Part shown: positions 1,141 through 18,952 of the stretch, piece after piece
How positions within the stretch are numbered: the first letter of the stretch is position 1
How the letters are laid out: each line of letters starts with the position of its first letter
Virus record (IMG/VR): IMGVR_UViG_2563366990_000003
Span: 1 to 18,952 of that record
DNA: 18,952 nucleotides
From: a virus
Taxonomy: Duplodnaviria > Heunggongvirae > Uroviricota > Caudoviricetes
Direction: 5' to 3' (one strand)
Position numbers and translations under genes: made by a program
The notes under the pieces: generated by a model
What the model was told of the DNA's origin: nothing
The model's input: only the letters and a program-made list of their open reading frames with translations
Databases searched by the model: none

Positions 1141-3782
1141 CGCCCGCTCCCTGATAACATACCGCCATCACGCAACTGCAGCCGGAGTTCATCCTGCGCC
1201 CCCTTACGGGCCATGTCATACACCGCCTTCATCAGCTGCGGCCCCGCCTGTCCGTTTATACCGTCGTTCTGAATCACCACGTGATTGTTCTGATTAAAAT
1301 TAATACCTTCCGCCCGCCGCATCTGCGCCGGACTTCCGGCACCACCCACATAACCACCTTCCGCATAGCCGCGCATCAGACGGTAAAGATTCCCCACACC
1401 TATCCGGCTGGTTGCCTCTTTCGTGAAAACAAACTCCCCGCGGTGAACTATCCCCGCAGGCTCATATTTGCCGCCCGTCCCCGTAAATCCTCCGGTCGCG
1501 AAATGGAAGTTCGCCGCCGCAGCCTCAATGGCCGTCCCCGAGGAAGCAGATGCACCACCACCGAAAGCACCACCAATGGCGCTGCCGATACGCCCGACAA
1601 TTCCCACCATGGCCTGTTTAAGCAGGATTTCTGTCATCATGGACAGCACCGAACGGGTGAATCCCCGCCAGTCTGCCTCTGCACCGGTCAGCATCGCCGC
1701 CATATTCTGTGCAATACCATCAAAGGTCTGCGTGGCCGCACTTTTAACCTGCGAAAAACTGTCCGTCGCACTTTCCGCCCACTCCCCCCAGCCGGACTTC
1801 AGCCCGGCCAGCCAGTCACCGCGCAGCATGTCTTCATCCGCCCATGTCTGTTTCAGTGCCCCGGTGACCTGTGCCAGCGCCTGCGGATTATCGCCGTACA
1901 CGTCACGAAGACGCTGCTCTTCAGACTCCCGCTGTGCCTGACGGTCGGTGAGACCACGGGCTTTTGCGCTGATGGCGGCCTGCTTCGCGCTCTGCTGCTC
2001 TTCAAACCGCACCGCCTGCTGTGCCAGCTCATTCAGGCGTTTCTGGTATTCAACCTTGTCGCCCAGCTCAGCCAGCTGGCGTTTGTACTCCAGCGTCTCG
2101 TCTTTATGCGCCAGCAGGGATTTTTCCTGCCCGGATAACTGTCGTTTCGTGGCAGCCTCTTTCAGGACCGCATACTGACTTTCCGCCTTCCATAAATCAC
2201 GGCGCTGCCGACTGATTTTCTCATTCGCACCGCTGTGTTTTTCCAGCGTCCTGAGCTCAGCTTCAAGGGCAAGCAGAGCCTCTCTTGCCTGCTCCTCTTC
2301 CCTCTCCCCGGCAGAGCGCGTTTTCGGTGATGTATGCTTTTTACCTGTCAGCTCTTCAGCCAGACGGCTGACGGCTTCCTGCTGCCCCGGACCTTTGCTG
2401 ACGCCTGTTGCACGCGAACGGTTGATGTACCCCATTTCCCCCTGGCGTATACGCACATCCCGTTCCGCAATGGATTTTCTCAGCGCCAGTTCATCGCGTT
2501 TTGTTTTCTCAATAAATACGCGGTTCTCTTCTGCCAGTTCACCAAACAACGCACCAACGCCGGGCACATTCTTTGTCGTTTCCCAGGCTGACTGAATAAA
2601 TTCAGCCAGCGCCAGATCCCCCTGCACAAGCAGCAGCTTCACCTGTTCAACGGTTCCTGCCACCACGTCAGTGATCAGACTGAGTGCCCCCAGTGTATGA
2701 TCACCTATCCATGCCCATGCGTCAGAAGTCCAGGTTTTAACATCGTCCCAGATTTTTTCCACCGGCGTGGCCGCTTTATCAAGTTGCTCCAGACGTGCAT
2801 TCATGACATCCGCAAACAGGGACATCGCCTCCGTCACCGCAGCCTGTTTACCTTTCGTGCGCTCAAGCTCATCAATATGGCGTAACTGGGAAACGCTCAG
2901 GAAGTTATACTGCTGATTCAGGGAGGCCAGCGCCTTCACCGGATCTGCTGCAATCCCTTCAAAGGCTTTTTCCACCTTCCCGGCATCGTCCCCCACCGTC
3001 TGCAGCCATCTCTGAGAGGTTTCCCCCATGATCCGTAGCTGCCCGGCGGTATATTTCCCGCTTTCTGCCAGACGGGCCAGATTTTCTGCCGCCTGTCTGA
3101 TACCACCACCGGCTTCATCGCTGATCACCCCGGCCATTTTCCACAATTCTGCCGTTGTGGTGGCAGCCGCCCCTCCGGTCAGGGTCAGTGAACGCAATAA
3201 GGCCCGGTCAGCCTGCTCTGCCTGCCAGGCGGCAGCAGCAAGCGCGGCCAGTACGGCAACCCCGCCACCTGCCGCCACACGGGCCACCGACATAAATCGT
3301 CCCAGTTCACCGGCATTCCGGGCATTTTCAGCCAGTGCATTTGCCGTATCTGACAGCGAATCCTCTGATGATTCAGAGGCATCCCTGATCCCGAGAAGTT
3401 CCTCCTTCAGCAGGGTAAGCAGGCTGAGCGGTCCACCGAATGAATCGCTGATCTGCCCCCCCTGCTGCAGCATGATAAGGAAGGGATTCTGACCACCGGC
3501 AAGCTGAGTGACAATATCCGTGAACTGTGCGGGCAGTGTGCGCATGGCAGCCTTATACTGTCCGACTGATATCCCGGCTTTTTGTGCAGCCAGCGCCTGT
3601 CGGCTCAGACTCTGCTCAGCAGCATCAGCCTGTTTTCTGAAAGACTGACTGACTTTCCCGGACATCAAATCAGCAAGCGCACTGGTTTCACCCAGCTCTT
3701 TTTTTACCCGCGCTGCCTCTTCAGAAAAACGGGCAGAATCCAGTGTCAGCACGGCTGTCAGATCGGCAAAATTACCTGCCAT
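1137..3782 (-). CDS. H: Tail tape measure protein (lambda H-like)
   Basis: Long Ala/Gln-rich ORF with a segment matching lambda gpH (SLSRQALAAQKAGISVGQYKAAMR.LPAQFTD..TQLAGGQ). The ORF-track start at 3791 is a GTG; I place the start at the in-frame ATG at 3782, which has AGGAGG 8 nt upstream. Position between T and M fits. Confidence 0.93.
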   Translation of the reverse strand: MAGNFADLTAVLTLDSARFSEEAARVKKELGETSALADLMSGKVSQSFRKQADAAEQSLSRQALAAQKAGISVGQYKAAMRTLPAQFTDIVTQLAGGQNPFLIMLQQGGQISDSFGGPLSLLTLLKEELLGIRDASESSEDSLSDTANALAENARNAGELGRFMSVARVAAGGGVAVLAALAAAAWQAEQADRALLRSLTLTGGAAATTTAELWKMAGVISDEAGGGIRQAAENLARLAESGKYTAGQLRIMGETSQRWLQTVGDDAGKVEKAFEGIAADPVKALASLNQQYNFLSVSQLRHIDELERTKGKQAAVTEAMSLFADVMNARLEQLDKAATPVEKIWDDVKTWTSDAWAWIGDHTLGALSLITDVVAGTVEQVKLLLVQGDLALAEFIQSAWETTKNVPGVGALFGELAEENRVFIEKTKRDELALRKSIAERDVRIRQGEMGYINRSRATGVSKGPGQQEAVSRLAEELTGKKHTSPKTRSAGEREEEQAREALLALEAELRTLEKHSGANEKISRQRRDLWKAESQYAVLKEAATKRQLSGQEKSLLAHKDETLEYKRQLAELGDKVEYQKRLNELAQQAVRFEEQQSAKQAAISAKARGLTDRQAQRESEEQRLRDVYGDNPQALAQVTGALKQTWADEDMLRGDWLAGLKSGWGEWAESATDSFSQVKSAATQTFDGIAQNMAAMLTGAEADWRGFTRSVLSMMTEILLKQAMVGIVGRIGSAIGGAFGGGASASSGTAIEAAAANFHFATGGFTGTGGKYEPAGIVHRGEFVFTKEATSRIGVGNLYRLMRGYAEGGYVGGAGSPAQMRRAEGINFNQNNHVVIQNDGINGQAGPQLMKAVYDMARKGAQDELRLQLRDGGMLSGSGR

Positions 3783-14493: not shown

Positions 14494-14494
14494 T

Positions 14495-14593
14495 TCACCA
14501 CCAGCGTATCTGACCGATGAAATAACCGGAGGCCATAATCACAAACACCAGCCAGATAAGGATGAACTTCCAGGTGGATAATTTTTCAGCCAT
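14495..14593 (-). CDS. 32-aa single-pass membrane peptide ORF, not in the ORF track
   Basis: Read directly: GGGAGA RBS, 8-nt spacer, then ATG at 14593. Translation is [32 protein letters not shown]. Its TGA stop is separated from the Rz ATG by one nucleotide. Confidence 0.4.
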
Positions 14594-14668
14594 CACTCGA
14601 ATCTCCCGAATCAGTTTGCTAAAATTAAACACACTTTCTCCTTTGACTTTTCCGGAGTCAGGAAACAC

Positions 14669-14702
14669 AAAACCCCGCTTGCTACCAACAAACGGGGTTT
14701 TT
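14669..14702. terminator. Bidirectional intrinsic-terminator-like hairpin between the endolysin and the small ORF/Rz
   Basis: Read directly: 9-bp stem AAAACCCCG/CGGGGTTTT with a 15-nt loop, flanked by T-rich tracts on both strands. Confidence 0.4.
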
Positions 14703-14791
14703 ACTTTTATTCACTTAGGTTTTGCCAGTTCGCAGGATTTCGTGTTATCCGTCCGCGTTGGCCAACGTCATTTTTCAGCAAAATATTCTGC

Positions 14792-15325
14792 TTATCTGTC
14801 GATTCCCCAGCACGCCAGCGCGCTCTCCTGGTCACGACGGGATATCTGGCCGTAACAGTTGTTTGAGCGGATACGGCAGTCTCTGCCACCGTCCTTAATC
14901 CACCAGCGAATCGCTTCACACGCTCCCCTGCGATCGCCTGCATTAATTCGTTTATAAAACGTCGACGGGAAACACTTACCGGGGCCAATGTTATACGGGC
15001 AGAATGACGCAATACCCGCTTTCTGGGGTTCGGTCAGTGGCACTCTGATGTTTTTCTCCACCCATGCCAGCGCCTTATCCCGTTCGATAGCGTTAACCCG
15101 GTCGCATTTTTCCTTCGACAGCTTCATGCCAGGAATCACAGGCTTACCATCCACCATGATGGCACCCCGGCAGATGGTCCAGATACCCGCACCATCACGG
15201 TATGCCGTGGTGTGGTTGCCTTCCTTTTCATCCAGAAACTGGTCGAGGATTTCAGGCGCAGAAGCCCCTGCGGCAATCAGCGCCAGAACGGCAGCTGACA
15301 GGCCGTATTTGATTTTTGCGTTCAT
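14792..15325 (-). CDS. R: SAR endolysin (phage lysozyme, GH24 / T4-lysozyme fold)
   Basis: 177-aa ORF. The N-terminus has a weakly hydrophobic Gly/Ala-rich SAR-like segment (YGLSAAVLALIAAGASAPE). The catalytic E-x8-D-x5-T triad is present (EGNHTTAYRDGAGIWT). It matches my recollection of the R lysozyme of Shiga-toxin-type lambdoid phages. ATG at 15325. Confidence 0.9.
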   Translation of the reverse strand: MNAKIKYGLSAAVLALIAAGASAPEILDQFLDEKEGNHTTAYRDGAGIWTICRGAIMVDGKPVIPGMKLSKEKCDRVNAIERDKALAWVEKNIRVPLTEPQKAGIASFCPYNIGPGKCFPSTFYKRINAGDRRGACEAIRWWIKDGGRDCRIRSNNCYGQISRRDQESALACWGIDR

Positions 15326-15352
15326 GGATATTTATCAGGATTTATAGCTCTC

Positions 15353-15403
15353 TTATTCCTGGATATGTCAGATATATAATCCGGTACTCACGATGAATAT
15401 AAT
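15353..15403 (+). promoter_or_regulatory. Candidate sigma70 promoter(s) for the plus-strand 106-aa ORF
   Basis: Read directly: TATAAT hexamers at 15375-15380 and 15398-15403 in a very AT-rich intergenic region 50-75 bp upstream of the ATG at 15451. The -35 elements are poor (TTATTC). Confidence 0.3.
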
Positions 15404-15450
15404 CAACAGGCACCAGGACACACCCGGTAACAACAAATGAGATTTTATAA

Positions 15451-15771
15451 ATGAATAATAATGACAACAATTTACGCAAAGAGTTTTTGCAGATAATGAA
15501 CGAAAATGTTAAATCAGAATTAAAAGCGCTTATCCCGGATAATAGCGAAACCACTCAGGCCATTCTCTCAGAGCCTTACGGCATGCTTTCAACAGAAACA
15601 CTGGATATCATTATCACCACATTAACACCATTGATGCTTCAGCATCTGAAGCACAACATTAACAAATGGTTTAATGACGAACTCAGTCACCCGGGTTGTT
15701 CATGGGATAAAAACTTTGCCTGTCTGCAAAAAAAACGGCTCTTCAATAAACTATCGCTTAAGTTCAGATAA
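15451..15771 (+). CDS. Hypothetical 106-aa protein, plus strand, convergent with and overlapping the 3' end of the 385-aa gene
   Basis: It is the only plausible plus-strand gene in the window. It is AT-rich, Asn/Lys/Leu-rich and predicted helical. ATG at 15451, weak RBS. No family recognised. Confidence 0.5.
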   Translation: MNNNDNNLRKEFLQIMNENVKSELKALIPDNSETTQAILSEPYGMLSTETLDIIITTLTPLMLQHLKHNINKWFNDELSHPGCSWDKNFACLQKKRLFNKLSLKFR

Positions 15772-16921
15772 CCGCCCCAAACCGCCCTTTCAGATAAGTC
15801 AGCCCCGGCTGGATCCAATCATCTGGCTCAGTCTTAAAGGGTGGAGTATTGAAATCACGAAGAACGGTCTCCCGCACAACTGCATCCTTATCAGCACCAC
15901 TGACCAGCGCTTCAATCTCAGCGGCTACCTGCAGATACCCCATGCAACGACCAATGCGCTTCATTAGTCCCTGCTTTTTATTGTTCTTCAGGTAATCAAT
16001 GGCAAATTCAATGAGCGTCTCACAGTGCTGGTGCGATGGCGGTGTTACTTTTCCATTTTCTGAGATAGTTATTTTCCCGTCATCACCGGATACAACAAAG
16101 GATGGCCGGTTACACTCCCATTCCTGGTCACTGAAATCTACCTTCAGAAAGAACGGCCCGATTTTTGTAAAGGAACCTTTGGCATCGTTCCCCTCATGAC
16201 GGAATACACCGACTCCGGCGGTAACGAGTTCACCGGTTATCGTATTTGTGTCTATTTCGATGCTTACGGGAATGGAACAGAGGATACCTGGACTTCTCTC
16301 AACATCATGTTTGATGGCCTCATGAAAGCCACCAAAAGAATGAGCAATGAAACAATCACTGGCGAGATGCGTCCCCTTTAAAAAATTATCCAGAATCTCA
16401 CTATTTGCAGAGCGCTCTCTGTTTTTTTGAATACGGAAACACTCTGCGAGATTTCTGCTCATCACTTTCCGGCAATAATCGTAAAACGCCGCGAACTGCT
16501 CATCACGGCGTTTTTTTTCACCTTCGGAAGGGATCTGCACCGACAGTTTTTTATTCAGTTCAACGACGCTGTTCTCCAGTTTTTCAATGCGTGATTCGAT
16601 ATCATCTTTTTCTGACTGTATCGTGTTATATGCATTGTTAATTTGTATGGTATACCGCTCTTCTGAACAGAGGCGCTTTTCCCGTGACTGTTCATCCCCT
16701 TCACATAAAGCGGCAGCAATATCCATGAAAAACTGCTTCGCCTTCTTTTTCGCCTCAGCTTCGTAAAATTCCAGCGTGGCACCTTCAGTACGGTCAAGAC
16801 TAATCGCCACATATGGCGACAACAACGACGGCTGCCCGGCAATTTCCAGTGCCACAGTAACAGTAATCTTATCCGGGTAATTATTTATCCCTTTAACAAC
16901 CAGTTCGTATTGTTTATTCAT
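15764..16921 (-). CDS. Hypothetical 385-aa protein inserted between holin and endolysin; function unknown
   Basis: ATG at 16921 lies 3 nt after the holin stop, with GGGGAGAG as RBS. The ORF is long and uninterrupted in AT-rich DNA. Architecture by eye: N-terminal domain, a central charged heptad-like segment (about aa 85-170) and a C-terminal Cys/His-containing domain. No signal peptide or TM segment. No family recognised. Confidence 0.8.
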   Translation of the reverse strand: MNKQYELVVKGINNYPDKITVTVALEIAGQPSLLSPYVAISLDRTEGATLEFYEAEAKKKAKQFFMDIAAALCEGDEQSREKRLCSEERYTIQINNAYNTIQSEKDDIESRIEKLENSVVELNKKLSVQIPSEGEKKRRDEQFAAFYDYCRKVMSRNLAECFRIQKNRERSANSEILDNFLKGTHLASDCFIAHSFGGFHEAIKHDVERSPGILCSIPVSIEIDTNTITGELVTAGVGVFRHEGNDAKGSFTKIGPFFLKVDFSDQEWECNRPSFVVSGDDGKITISENGKVTPPSHQHCETLIEFAIDYLKNNKKQGLMKRIGRCMGYLQVAAEIEALVSGADKDAVVRETVLRDFNTPPFKTEPDDWIQPGLTYLKGRFGAVI

Positions 16922-16924
16922 CGT

Positions 16925-17140
16925 CTACTCTCCCCGTGCCGCCTTGCGCCGGTCCTCTTTAATTTTGAAATACAGGTTTGTCAGGTACGTCAGCAACCCA
17001 AACAGCAGACTCCCCAGCACACCTATTGCCGCCCACTGAGACGGGGAAACCCTGTCCAGCAACTGCAGGAACCAGTAGCCCGTTCCCACCGCTGACGTGG
17101 TGTATGACACACCTGTTGTGATTTTTTCCATCTGGTACAT
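16925..17140 (-). CDS. S: Class II holin of the phage 21 S21 pinholin family, with dual-start motif
   Basis: 71-aa product [71 protein letters not shown], near-colinear with S21 as I recall it. It has two TM segments and Met1/Met4 starts (antiholin/holin). GGAG RBS. The ORF-track start at 17194 is a GTG further upstream. Confidence 0.9.
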
Positions 17141-17216
17141 ACCCCGTCTCCCGCAATCCGGAAGCTCACAACAATATAAAGACCACCGGCACACACCGAT
17201 GGTCCCTTGCGCATGC

Positions 17217-17462
17217 TTACATCATCATGTCGCTGTCAGGTGTGGGTTCACCGCCATCTGAAGCACTCCCGTCACCCGCAATGCCTTCCGGCTCCGGAAC
17301 TGCCGGTGCGCCCAGCAGTTCATCCAGAATGGCATCCACTTCTGCATCAAGACGCGACTCAAGGTTCTGGCGGAGTTTCTGTTTCAGTGCGCTCAGGACT
17401 TCTTCAGAGCGCAGGACTTCCTTCACTGCTTCAGCAGTGACCAGGGATGTGATTTCTGACAT
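17217..17462 (-). CDS. Hypothetical acidic 81-aa protein upstream of the holin
   Basis: ATG at 17462, following the 60-aa ORF stop by 26 nt. Product [51 protein letters not shown]... is helical and acidic with non-random composition. The RBS is weak. Confidence 0.5.
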
Positions 17463-17487
17463 GGGATTTTCTCGCTGAAAGGGGTTG

Positions 17488-17670
17488 TTAAGGAGTAACG
17501 GGCTCTTCGGGTTTGCTTCCGGCTGACTGACTGGCGCTGATTTTCTCAGCGGCCCTTTTATCAATCTGCCTGCGCCAGAAATCGCGCACGGCCCTGTACC
17601 CACCCGAAAGAAGATACAGCACACAGACCGCCGTACAGAAGTACAGCATCACCTGATGAATAAATGTCAT
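17488..17670 (-). CDS. Hypothetical 60-aa small membrane protein
   Basis: ATG at 17670. One predicted TM segment (VMLYFCTAVCVLYLLSGGY) followed by a basic/polar tail. Same strand and operon context as the lysis genes. Confidence 0.45.
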   Translation of the reverse strand: MTFIHQVMLYFCTAVCVLYLLSGGYRAVRDFWRRQIDKRAAEKISASQSAGSKPEEPVTP

Positions 17671-17770
17671 AATTTCTTACCGTTATGGTTGACTAAGTAA
17701 ACAGTTTTCATTTAAAAATGCCGATGACGAAAGTGGTAGTATCTTTCCTTGATTCTCCATGAATCTCACA

Positions 17771-17806
17771 CCGCCAGAGGTCTCAGGCAACTGGCGGCTT
17801 TTTTTA
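17771..17806 (+). terminator. Plus-strand intrinsic-terminator-like hairpin, abutting the stop of the large minus-strand ORF
   Basis: Read directly: 7-bp GC-rich stem CCGCCAG/CTGGCGG with a 13-nt loop, followed by C plus T7 on the plus strand only. The minus strand has no U-tract after the stem. Confidence 0.4.
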
Positions 17807-18952
17807 TCATGCCGCGGCATCCGCGTTGTTCACTTCCACCTTCACACTGTCAATCAGCAGCGTATATGTCGCCGCCTTTGATATGCCTGTCAGTTGCAGT
17901 TTGTCCGCCGCCCCTGATGCCGGAGATTTCACCAGTGTGAACGGTGTACCCCGTTTCTCATCCAGTACCGGCGTCACCTGAATGCTGTTGTTTCCGGCAA
18001 ACTCAAAAGCCAGTGTGTGCCATCCGTTATCAAAGACCCCGAACGTATCCAGCTTCGCATTCTGCTTCTTGTGGTACATCGCGTTCAGGTTCGTCGCATC
18101 CGTCTGCAGGAAGAAGGACATCAGCATGTCGTTGCCTTCCTCTGACAGCGTCACTCCCTCCGGCAGGGACGACAACTGCCAGTAAATACCCAGGGCAAAC
18201 TGATTCGGCACCAGTGCGCCCGGCACCTTAAACCGCACGCTCACACGTCCGCCTTTCTTCAGCAACTCTGCCCCCTGCCCGGCGGCATCATGCTCCAGAA
18301 ACCAGATGTGGCTTTCCGGTTTGTTCAGTTGCAGGGCCTTACCACCGGTGGCACCCTCATCACTGACCACGGCCTCAGCGATGTTTTTATCAACACTGTC
18401 TCCGCTCGCCGGTTTGTGATAATAGCGCCAGCCCTGTGATGCCAGGTCTTCACCGGACGCCAGCAGACTCATCAGGGTTCGGTTACTGACCGGGGCTTCC
18501 GGCTCTCTCTCCGGGCCTTCACCGGAAGGTCCGGTGGGCTTCACCGTATCAGGCTGTTTTCCGGTAATGAATTCAGCGGTTCTCCCGGCATGCACCAGAA
18601 TCGCCGTTGCCAGACGGTCGGAAATAATCCCACGGCGAGCCCATGAACTGAAATGGCTGGCCCTGTCCACAGATGTCCAGGTCTTCTGGTCATTACGCCA
18701 CTTTGAACCGTAATAACCGACGGCTTCCAGGTCCGGGTCTTCTGCCGGGTCATTGGTCTGCACATTCGCACCATTCTCATCCGTCATTAACGGTACAAAG
18801 AAAATGTTCTGCGACTCCTTACCCTTATACCCTCCGTATACTGATGCATACCCTTCCGCATGACGCTGCTTCCAGAAATACGTTGTGTCCCCGCAAACCC
18901 ACGGTACCGCTGATGCGCTGCCTCCTGTGCTCTGTGATGCCTGACCGGCAAG
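17807..18952 (-). CDS. C-terminal 381 codons of a larger late-operon protein truncated at the window edge; possibly NanS-p-like
   Basis: The frame is open from 18952 down to TGA at 17807-17809; the ORF track shows only the part from the first in-frame ATG at 18787. Large ORFs in this position upstream of the holin in Shiga-toxin-type prophages are NanS-p-like sialate O-acetylesterases as I recall. I cannot confirm this by sequence recognition. Confidence 0.6.
   Translation of the reverse strand, partial: LAGQASQSTGGSASAVPWVCGDTTYFWKQRHAEGYASVYGGYKGKESQNIFFVPLMTDENGANVQTNDPAEDPDLEAVGYYGSKWRNDQKTWTSVDRASHFSSWARRGIISDRLATAILVHAGRTAEFITGKQPDTVKPTGPSGEGPEREPEAPVSNRTLMSLLASGEDLASQGWRYYHKPASGDSVDKNIAEAVVSDEGATGGKALQLNKPESHIWFLEHDAAGQGAELLKKGGRVSVRFKVPGALVPNQFALGIYWQLSSLPEGVTLSEEGNDMLMSFFLQTDATNLNAMYHKKQNAKLDTFGVFDNGWHTLAFEFAGNNSIQVTPVLDEKRGTPFTLVKSPASGAADKLQLTGISKAATYTLLIDSVKVEVNNADAAA

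Follow-up and report, generated by a model that had tools for sequence, protein, structure and literature searches.

A rare mosaic member of the YdfR/DUF1327 prophage family encoded directly after a class II holin gene

YdfR and comparable systems

A large share of Escherichia coli prophages, those of Stx phages included, carry YdfR/DUF1327-family genes within the lysis cassette. In the Qin cryptic prophage of K-12, ydfR (b1555) encodes a 103-aa protein made up of the DUF1327 domain alone; the gene directly follows an S21-type holin gene (essQ), overlaps the start of the lysozyme gene (rrrQ) by 4 nt, and is not followed by a convergent gene. Two-hybrid and pull-down experiments showed that residues 1 to 72 of K-12 YdfR bind RNase E 1-597 (PMC13232886), and this binding, published for the K-12 protein only, is the sole published functional lead that we found for the family. 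The same protein co-purifies with RNA, for which the authors state that a contaminant source could not be excluded, and its overproduction barely changed the transcriptome and left growth unaffected (PMC13232886). PMC13232886 also cites an envelope-integrity screen in which a K-12 ydfR mutant was recovered; in our own reading, polarity on the lysozyme gene downstream is an obvious other explanation of that phenotype.

Other family forms are longer or differently divided. The Stx1a phage Stx1_14040 encodes a 263-aa DUF1327 protein (BCI49067.1; cluster of 444 sequences), phrog_1085 includes YdfR-family proteins of 296 aa and 287 aa (for example, P0027 and P0004), and O157/Stx prophages (L006 to L009) carry a pair made up of a 213-aa protein and a 75-aa DUF1327 protein. 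Outside the family, a comparable layout is known from the operons of pore-former colicins, in which the colicin gene is followed by a convergent immunity gene and then by a lysis gene; the immunity proteins of these colicins have a membrane segment.

Here we describe a further form, encoded in a window of 18,952 nt from a Caudoviricetes virus record. The open reading frame (ORF) occupies positions 15764 to 16921 of the minus strand, begins with ATG, and encodes a 385-aa protein of 43.3 kDa with a pI of 5.5 that is identical to ELE54172.1 (E. coli KTE75). Since the same protein is encoded letter for letter in three independent assemblies, and the homologues of its parts are under purifying selection, the ORF is not a chance frame. 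As at the K-12 locus, it sits directly after the holin gene and before the lysozyme gene; the cassette order in the window is holin, 385-aa ORF, convergent gene, lysozyme, and Rz/Rz1, a gene order that recurs in K-12 Qin, phage 86, and others.

A four-piece recombinant coupled to the pinholin gene

The upstream gene (16925 to 17140, minus strand) encodes a 71-aa class II holin of the phage 21 pinholin type (PF04971, E = 1.5e-32) with a MYQM dual start, the two Met codons lying at 17140 and 17131. The next late gene (14792 to 15325, minus strand) encodes a 177-aa R21-like lysozyme (PF00959, E = 2.2e-23) with a Gly/Ala-rich, hydrophobic N terminus typical of signal-arrest-release (SAR) endolysins. 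The minus strand at the holin junction reads ...GCA CGG GGA GAG TAG ACG ATG, so that the holin ends in ...ARGE* and is followed by three bases (ACG) and the ATG of the ORF. The ribosome-binding site, GGGGAGAG, lies at 16928 to 16935 within the last holin codons, ahead of TAG, ACG, and ATG. A sequence-only reading of the window had placed the start 3 nt past the holin stop, with GGGGAGAG inside the holin 3' end, and both placements are correct on the minus strand. The translational coupling to the holin that this reading proposed also held up, because the junction CGGGGAGAGTA(G/A)nnnATG is common to 11 related loci regardless of the module that starts the next gene; the conservation of this junction indicates that translation of the ORF is coupled to that of the pinholin.

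No sigma-70-like promoter was found in a scan of positions 14700 to 17900, and in a true Stx phage (L008) the family gene lies a few kilobases downstream of stx on the same strand. Together with the conserved coupling junction, these observations make it reasonable to infer, purely from position, that the ORF is transcribed late along with the lysis genes. Within the window there was no match to any Rfam RNA family, and no meaningful repeats were found flanking the locus. The protein has no detectable signal peptide and should be soluble and free of membrane segments, given that its highest 19-residue hydropathy is 1.05 (GRAVY -0.43).

The sequence-only reading had called the protein unknown, which is only partly right, as residues 1 to 83 align to positions 1 to 83 of the 93 in the DUF1327/YdfR model PF07041 at 118.5 bits against a cut-off of 25 (E = 1.6e-34). 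The DUF1327 domain (residues 1 to 85; 16667 to 16921, minus strand) has a predicted fold of three strands and a long helix (AF2 pLDDT 64-91 over residues 1 to 70) and a dN/dS of 0.26-0.58. It is followed by a charged coiled coil and a conserved helix, EKKRRDEQFAAFYDYCRKVMSRNLAECF, which together span residues 86 to 163 (16433 to 16666, minus strand) in our alignments and have a dN/dS of about 0.55; heptads were detected at residues 92 to 128, in agreement with the heptad-rich segment noted earlier. The profile of phrog_1085 matches the protein end to end (E = 2e-151; residues 1 to 381 on positions 1 to 296 of 296), and this alignment leaves about 90 extra residues in the 385-aa protein. A search of NCBIfam returned nothing, and among 178 DUF1327 relatives from Escherichia, Shigella, Salmonella, and Yersinia no Pfam domain besides PF07041 was present.

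The site after a class II holin gene is occupied by the family in K-12 Qin, Stx2 phage 86, other Stx1 and Stx2 phages, and many E. coli genomes. Of 5426 complete E. coli genomes, 2910 match part of the region, often with multiple copies, and distant relatives with 30-40% identity still sit between the Q antiterminator and the holin. Disruption of the ORF in all related phages, which by the sequence-only reading would count against its proposal, is seen only in part: the ORF is intact in many relatives, yet its length (103 to 385 aa at the site) and content vary widely, and some copies are pseudogenes or are interrupted by an IS element.

Compared with the described family members, the window protein differs in which pieces are joined. 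It shares the Pfam family with K-12 YdfR, at 38% identity over the first ~99 residues, has the holin junction in common with it, and adds a coiled coil, a filler segment derived from antisense sequence, and a C-terminal domain that we term E. It belongs to the same 90% cluster as the 263-aa protein of Stx1_14040, which lacks the E domain and ends in ...FFLKVER*. Homology to Stx1_14040 breaks off exactly at the end of FFLKV and picks up again 45 nt 5' of the lysozyme ATG, the ~45 nt ahead of that codon forming the right-hand boundary of the swapped cassette; identity is 100% in the coil and 98% in the filler but only 81% in the N-terminal domain. The 296-aa and 287-aa proteins align end to end and have the N-terminal domain, coil, and E in the same order, without the residues corresponding to ~164 to 262, and by alignment the 385-aa protein resembles this type carrying an antisense insert between ...NLAECF and ...FSDxEWECNRP. 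The 213-aa and 75-aa pair shares the site, the junction, and the E domain (89% identical), but there the family is split over two genes in reversed order, with coil plus E first and DUF1327 second, followed by a different convergent gene (phrog_10490).

Across loci the modules occur in many combinations. The N-terminal domain stands alone in K-12, and coil plus E occur without it in L001, L011, and L017; since each is also found apart, the modules need not act together. These comparisons identify the 385-aa gene as a real but rare four-piece recombinant of the YdfR/DUF1327 prophage family, the 385-aa form having been found in three assemblies, whereas the clusters of the 263-, 296-, and 213-aa forms have from hundreds to about a thousand members. 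It is a new architecture within a known, uncharacterized family, and the family itself is a set of shuffled modules rather than a single domain.

An overlooked opposite-strand gene and a conserved C-terminal domain

The filler, or D segment (~97 residues, 164 to 262; 16136 to 16432, minus strand), results from reading a truncated convergent gene, together with its terminator, in the antisense direction. On the plus strand, positions 16143 to 16381 hold the last 80 codons, including the stop, of a convergent gene X that here has no start codon and has intact homologues elsewhere. Gene X encodes about 210 aa and is intact in Stx1_14040, where it overlaps the last ~84 codons of the 263-aa gene on the other strand, and in L026. 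A terminator-like hairpin with a T-run lies 26 nt past the gene X stop (16407 to 16432, plus strand), and its reverse complement encodes residues 164 to 172 (IQKNRERSA); an analogous hairpin is present 3' of gene X in L026, and these two loci are diverged.

Where the X and D frames overlap, most substitutions hit third positions of X codons in five of the six comparisons, identity is 47-68% in the X frame versus 34-57% in the D frame, and dN/dS is 0.18-0.52 versus 0.40-1.36. These patterns indicate that selection acts on the opposite strand, in the frame of gene X. Modeling of the D segment gave a pLDDT of 28-58, and it is probably a linker and not a domain. In each of the four gene X homologues that we examined the D frame stays open, a biased observation because the loci were found through D-frame ORFs; some use of this frame as protein may nevertheless occur. 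We had considered residues 166 to 262 as a genuine D module with a convergent partner of its own, and dropped this because the supposed partner is a single long gene on the opposite strand, which overlaps D and shows the signal of selection. The comparisons thus point to an unannotated convergent gene X of about 210 aa at this site, missed by current annotation because the opposite-strand ORF is called instead. This is a concrete annotation problem, in that at least one apparent module of the family, along with its stand-alone database proteins, is the shadow of an overlooked gene.

The antisense origin of the D segment bears on the Cys/His-containing C-terminal region highlighted in the sequence-only reading. 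The strings it quoted are present, HSFGGFHEAIKHD at residues 194 to 206, within D, and PSHQHCETL at residues 295 to 303, within E. As a site, however, the region did not survive comparison: among its Cys and His residues, His299 alone is constant across the E-domain alignment. Cys270 is not conserved, nor is Cys300, which relatives replace with Arg or Ser, and Cys326 varies among Cys, Ser, and Ala. Cys190, Cys215, and His185, His194, His200, His205, and His242 fall in the filler. A Cys/His metal-binding domain was rejected on these grounds, the ligands apart from His299 not being conserved. The earlier decision not to call a metalloprotease was sound, as HEAIKH has the form HExxxH, not HExxH, and there is no peptidase match in Pfam. 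The corresponding His/Glu positions read FQE, FKK, and ERA in relatives, and with no HExxH, variable positions, and a motif located in antisense-derived sequence, a zincin metalloprotease was also rejected. The stretch containing HSFGGFHEAIKHD and HEAIKH is unlikely to be an enzyme site, since it is a back-to-front reading of a broken neighboring gene.

The E domain (residues 263 to 385; 15767 to 16135, minus strand) is the most constrained part of the protein, and its dN/dS of 0.15-0.32 and pLDDT of 80-94 establish it as a real domain. The full-length AF2 model was poor (pLDDT 46), and a second model of residues 160 to 385 gave a confident E domain of three short strands and four helices. Conserved motifs include His299, GR(C/S/A)MxxLQxAAEIE, DxPPxK, and WxxPGxxYLKxR. 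E had no fold match in the libraries searched and no sequence match to anything characterized, and PDB sequence searches with a single sequence and with a profile returned nothing significant.

Next to E, a convergent gene on the plus strand (15451 to 15771) encodes a 106-aa protein of phrog_1853 (E = 1e-43), its 3' end overlapping the 385-aa ORF by 8 nt. Substitutions in this gene follow a coding pattern, with position 3 > position 1 > position 2. Because it runs antisense to the late operon, the gene must be served by a promoter of its own; none was found by scan or alignment. The convergent arrangement of E and phrog_1853 occurs in five loci, among them phage 86, L001, L011, the window, and one distant locus, and is kept even at 35-40% identity; a phrog_1853 homologue (40% identity, E = 8e-27) adjoins a stand-alone E protein of 125 aa. 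The pairing is not obligatory, because E is found without the partner gene in L017, L018, and L020 and with a DUF1883 convergent gene in L010, L021, and L022. A general partner family of small convergent genes was rejected, as the genes of phrog_2411, phrog_2572, and phrog_10490 that follow N-type genes are mutually dissimilar.

Possible roles in the late operon

The reading that we place slightly on the probable side is that the 385-aa ORF is an intact, recombinant YdfR/DUF1327 member serving as an accessory gene of the late operon. YdfR/DUF1327 genes would be nonessential accessories of this operon in lambdoid and Stx prophages, and recombination has here joined DUF1327 (1-85), coil plus helix (86-163), an opposite-strand reading of the terminator and the last 80 codons of truncated gene X (164-262), and an E domain (263-385) that usually travels with the convergent phrog_1853-family small gene. 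The soluble product would remain in the cytoplasm, and in the last minutes before lysis its DUF1327 domain might dock on RNA and/or the RNase E catalytic half, as has been reported for K-12 YdfR, while the coiled coil would oligomerize the protein and E would carry a second activity linked to the convergent partner. Taken as a whole, this mode of action, extrapolated from K-12 YdfR and from domain layout, is tentative and rather doubtful; transfer of RNase E binding to the window domain is weak because identity to K-12 YdfR is just 38%. The RNase E lead can now be tested on the long forms of the family.

The recurrent neighborhood of E suggests another possibility, which we consider unlikely but worth setting out, namely that E and the phrog_1853 gene form a two-gene conflict cassette. 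Either a late-made effector would be paired with an antidote from the lysogen, arranged as in pore-former colicin operons, or a defense protein expressed in the lysogen would be neutralized by the prophage's E at induction. The strong constraint on E, the truly coding partner lying antisense to the late operon, and a convergent layout that recurs in phage 86, L001, L011, and the window and persists at 35-40% identity even where E stands alone would all fit such a pair. The likeness to the colicin operons lies in a damage-induced protein, a small opposite-strand gene right after it, and then a lysis function; there is no similarity of sequence or fold, and the partner here lacks the membrane segment of pore-former immunity proteins. 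E also occurs without the partner (L017, L018, and L020) or beside other convergent genes, no promoter-like site was found for the partner, and adjacency may reflect co-transfer of neighboring DNA. We found no toxin, nuclease, pore-former, or defense signature and no fold match: the C-terminal part contains no known toxin fold or domain in the libraries searched, the best hit of the 385-aa ORF to the PADLOC-DB 2.0 defense models (PDC-S66, E = 0.011) is not a match, and the same search gave nothing for the phrog_1853 gene. We likewise consider it unlikely that E and phrog_1853 make up a previously unrecognized cassette embedded among the lysis genes of Stx-type prophages, with one partner produced in the lysogen and the other restricted to induction; if they do, Stx-phage induction would be linked to a new accessory function.

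Coupling to the holin gene could also fix the ratio of the two products, as expected if the protein were an antiholin-like regulator of lysis timing in the pinholin/SAR-endolysin cassette. The conserved junction, the persistence of the family, even at 30-40% identity, beside genes for class II holins and lysozymes, and the envelope-integrity screen that recovered the ydfR mutant (cited in PMC13232886) agree with this role, which we nevertheless think improbable. The holin and the SAR endolysin have their sites of action in the membrane and the periplasm, respectively, whereas the 385-aa protein has no membrane segment or export signal and no holin match in Pfam or PHROG; holin and lysozyme genes are directly adjacent where the family gene lies upstream (L010, L020, and L022). 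Variation in content from 103 to 385 aa, pseudogenes, and IS insertions fit a tuned regulator poorly, as does K-12 YdfR overproduction without effect on growth (PMC13232886). Following the logic of Stx, as the sequence-only reading had it, the protein might instead be cargo released at lysis to act outside the cell, since in true Stx phages such as L008 the gene shares a late transcript with stx and its product would be made just before lysis. We give this very little credence: there is no signal peptide, receptor-binding or toxin domain, or fold match in the libraries searched, family members are as short as 75-103 aa, and the sole published evidence indicates a partner inside the cell, RNase E (PMC13232886). 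Finally, the rarity of the form relative to the other lengths (three assemblies), its two sharp breakpoints, and the antisense-derived filler that makes up one quarter of it could mark a nonfunctional recombination accident, a merely tolerated in-frame fusion. This is highly improbable in our view, as the N-terminal and E parts are undamaged and have matching homologues under constraint, the frame is kept across both junctions, and the coupling junction and partner gene are intact; still, the chimera may be a neutral or even impaired recombinant.

The conserved E domain with its recurrent convergent partner makes a simple experiment possible. In a scan of species-representative genomes, the E profile hit only three loci, in Escherichia and Shigella.

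The ORF within the prophage late region

The window represents the late region of a lambdoid, Stx-type prophage of E. coli. From the high-coordinate end, its minus strand carries a DUF6645 gene, DUF1378, DUF826, the holin, the ORF (15764..16921, ATG start, 385 aa), lysozyme, Rz/Rz1, terminase, head genes, and tail genes. The holin upstream of the ORF is of the phage-21-type class II (PF04971, E 1.5e-32), and the next late gene, the lysozyme (PF00959), has a Gly/Ala-rich, hydrophobic N terminus typical of signal-arrest-release (SAR) endolysins. This backbone is common (92% coverage, 97 to 98% identity), whereas the ORF locus is the variable part of the window; no phage or E. coli collection record covers at least 80% of 15300-17200. 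Part of the region is matched in 2,910 of 5,426 complete E. coli genomes, at a median of two places per genome. The ~45 nt 5' of the lysozyme ATG (15326-15370, minus strand; AACATATCCAGG...ATAAATCCTGATAAATATCC) are kept in most related loci, contain no obvious lysozyme Shine-Dalgarno sequence, and form the right-hand recombination boundary.

At the holin-ORF junction, the minus strand reads GCA CGG GGA GAG TAG ACG ATG; three bases therefore separate the holin stop from the ORF start, and GGGGAGAG falls within the last holin codons. The junction CGGGGAGAGTA(G/A)nnnATG is kept in 11 related loci, regardless of the type of gene after the holin. The features from which a sequence-only reading had proposed coupling to the holin are thus all present. 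Translation of the ORF would be coupled to the pinholin, so that its product would appear together with the lysis proteins. The late expression that the same reading had likened to that of Stx is reasonable: no promoter-like site was found in 14700-17900, and distant family relatives share the placement between Q and the holin. Judging from its position, the ORF would be transcribed on the Q-dependent late transcript.

The holin has a MYQM dual-start motif (17129-17140, minus strand; Met codons at 17140 and 17131), which predicts products of 71 and 68 aa, as in phage 21 S. A strong terminator-like hairpin (17178-17207, minus strand), with 13 pairs and then a T-rich tail, lies ~40 to 70 nt 5' of the holin start and could stop polymerase that is not Q-modified from reading through into the lysis genes.

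Module shuffling in the YdfR family

The ORF protein is soluble (43.3 kDa, pI 5.5), lacks a membrane segment, and has a heptad pattern at residues 92-128. Its sequence occurs unchanged in three independent assemblies, including E. coli KTE75 (ELE54172.1). The protein had been described from sequence as unknown, but its family is known: residues 1-83 match DUF1327/YdfR (PF07041; 118.5 bits against a cutoff of 25), and phrog_1085 matches the whole protein, which has ~90 extra residues. A YdfR-family gene occupies the same position in K-12 Qin (essQ-ydfR-rrrQ), Stx2 phage 86, many Stx1 and Stx2 phages, and E. coli genomes more widely. Family and position are already annotated, though uncharacterised, and we found no literature on the intervening gene beyond an RNase E study and one passing mention. 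The family is narrow: a set of 1.84 billion representatives contains only 79 clusters of it at 50% identity. Its N domain extends to Salmonella, Shigella, E. albertii, and Yersinia ruckeri and was never seen fused to another Pfam domain among the relatives.

Alignments and locus comparisons define modules N (the DUF1327 domain), B/C (coiled coil plus helix EKKRRDEQFAAFYDYCRKVMSRNLAECF), "D" (residues ~164-262), and E (residues 263-385), and the family is a shuffled set of these. N stands alone in K-12 (103 aa), and N+C makes 169 aa. N+C+D (263 and 305 aa), N+C+E (268 to 330 aa), and C+E without N (185 to 213 aa) are all common, whereas the N+C+D+E form of the ORF protein is rare; this four-part architecture is new. 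In O157/Stx prophages (L006-L009, 4001-4897), a 213-aa coil+E gene is followed by a separate 75-aa DUF1327 gene, an order opposite to that of the fused form. In one of these (L008), stx A and B are encoded on the same strand, ~3.5 kb farther upstream. Compared with the Stx1a phage Stx1_14040, homology ends exactly after FFLKV and restarts ~45 nt before the lysozyme ATG, and identity is 100% in the coil and 98% in the D segment but only 81% in the N domain. The sharp break and unequal identities mark the ORF as a patchwork gene.

Antisense origin of the D segment

"Module D" is antisense to a broken gene, which we call gene X, a convergent ORF of ~210 aa downstream of D-ending genes. X is intact in L002 (Stx1_14040; 2657-3289, plus strand), whose record has no annotation at this site, and in L026 (3445-4077, minus strand), frameshifted in L023, and partial in L027. 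Neither Pfam nor PHROG gives a match to it, and its last ~80 codons are read opposite D in a shared codon register. Within this overlap, identity is higher in the X frame (47 to 68% versus 34 to 57% in the D frame), five of six comparisons place substitutions mainly at third codon positions of X, and dN/dS is 0.18 to 0.52 for X versus 0.40 to 1.36 for D; the selection signal in the overlap thus favors X. The loci were collected via D-frame ORFs, and the openness of the D frame among them is therefore biased. In two diverged loci, the X stop is followed by a hairpin and T-run resembling a terminator. X is kept across four diverged prophage loci, in lysis as well as tail regions, and the database proteins resembling D alone (P0133 and P0162), placed in tail-gene regions of other phages, are antisense shadow ORFs of X.

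In the window, X is truncated to its last 80 codons, which lack a start codon (16143-16381, plus strand), and its terminator (16407-16432, plus strand). Residues 164-172 (IQKNRERSA) are encoded by the reverse complement of this terminator, and the X stop TAA is Leu181 (TTA) of the ORF. The segment, with AF2 pLDDT of 28 to 58, is presumably still translated; its recognition as antisense-derived filler from an unannotated gene is also new.

The E domain, its partner, and possible roles

E is a real domain, with dN/dS of 0.15 to 0.32 against five relatives and an AF2 model (pLDDT 80 to 94) of four helices and three short strands. It resembles no known domain, and PADLOC and NCBIfam gave no match. 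Among the invariant residues are His299, Gly324-Arg325, LQVAAEI, Pro361, Lys363, Trp369, Pro372-Gly373, and Tyr376-Leu377. The emphasis of the sequence-only reading on a Cys/His region did not survive comparison: relatives carry Arg or Ser in place of Cys300 of PSHQHCE, Cys326 is variable, and HSFGGFHEAIKHD (residues 194-206) lies inside the antisense-derived segment. The comparison gives no support to a metal site.

The convergent partner gene (15451-15771, plus strand; 106 aa, phrog_1853, E 1e-43; WP_001063217.1 in NZ_CP027457) overlaps the ORF 3' end by 8 nt and runs antisense to the late operon. Its homologues are found after E-type genes in phage 86, L001, and L011; another (40% identity, E 8e-27) comes after a free-standing E protein of 125 aa, in which the E domain is only ~35% identical. 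Partner substitutions show a coding pattern (pos3 > pos1 > pos2) in four comparisons, and a good Shine-Dalgarno sequence precedes the phage 86 gene; a search for a partner promoter found none. E occurs without any convergent gene in L017, L018, and L020, and the convergent gene found with it in L010, L021, and L022 is a DUF1883 gene. N-type family genes are followed by small convergent genes from unrelated PHROGs. The pairing, newly recognized here, is thus recurrent and not obligatory.

Anatomy, family membership, mosaic origin, selection pattern, and synteny are established. In two-hybrid and pull-down assays, residues 1-72 of K-12 YdfR bound the catalytic half of RNase E, and RNA copurified; overproduction changed few transcripts, and ydfR was silent under standard growth (PMC13232886). 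By homology, the DUF1327 domain of the ORF protein may have the same targets, the catalytic half of RNase E and/or RNA, and we consider a role in RNA decay possible but not likely. That E and its recurrent partner form a conflict cassette seems slightly less probable. A part in lysis timing, for a product presumably made alongside the pinholin, is quite improbable. A released effector and a functionless chimera are each very improbable.

Neighboring genes also vary. The lysozyme-Rz interval (14494-14791) holds only a small ORF and no antirepressor (ant/KilAC) gene, unlike close relatives (L011, phage 86, and L001), and is thus a second variable site of the cassette. In three distant relatives (L010, L021, and L022), the family gene is located on the upstream side of the holin. 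A DUF4406 gene with overlapping stop/start and a reversed hicBA pair come before it, and a 79-aa gene and the convergent DUF1883 gene after it. The DUF6645 protein of the window (17807-18787, minus strand) has 326 aa, versus ~650 aa in the full SASA-DUF6645 (NanS-p-like) esterases of relatives, and KTE75 carries the DUF6645-DUF1378-DUF826 block twice in tandem (L013:1-2115).
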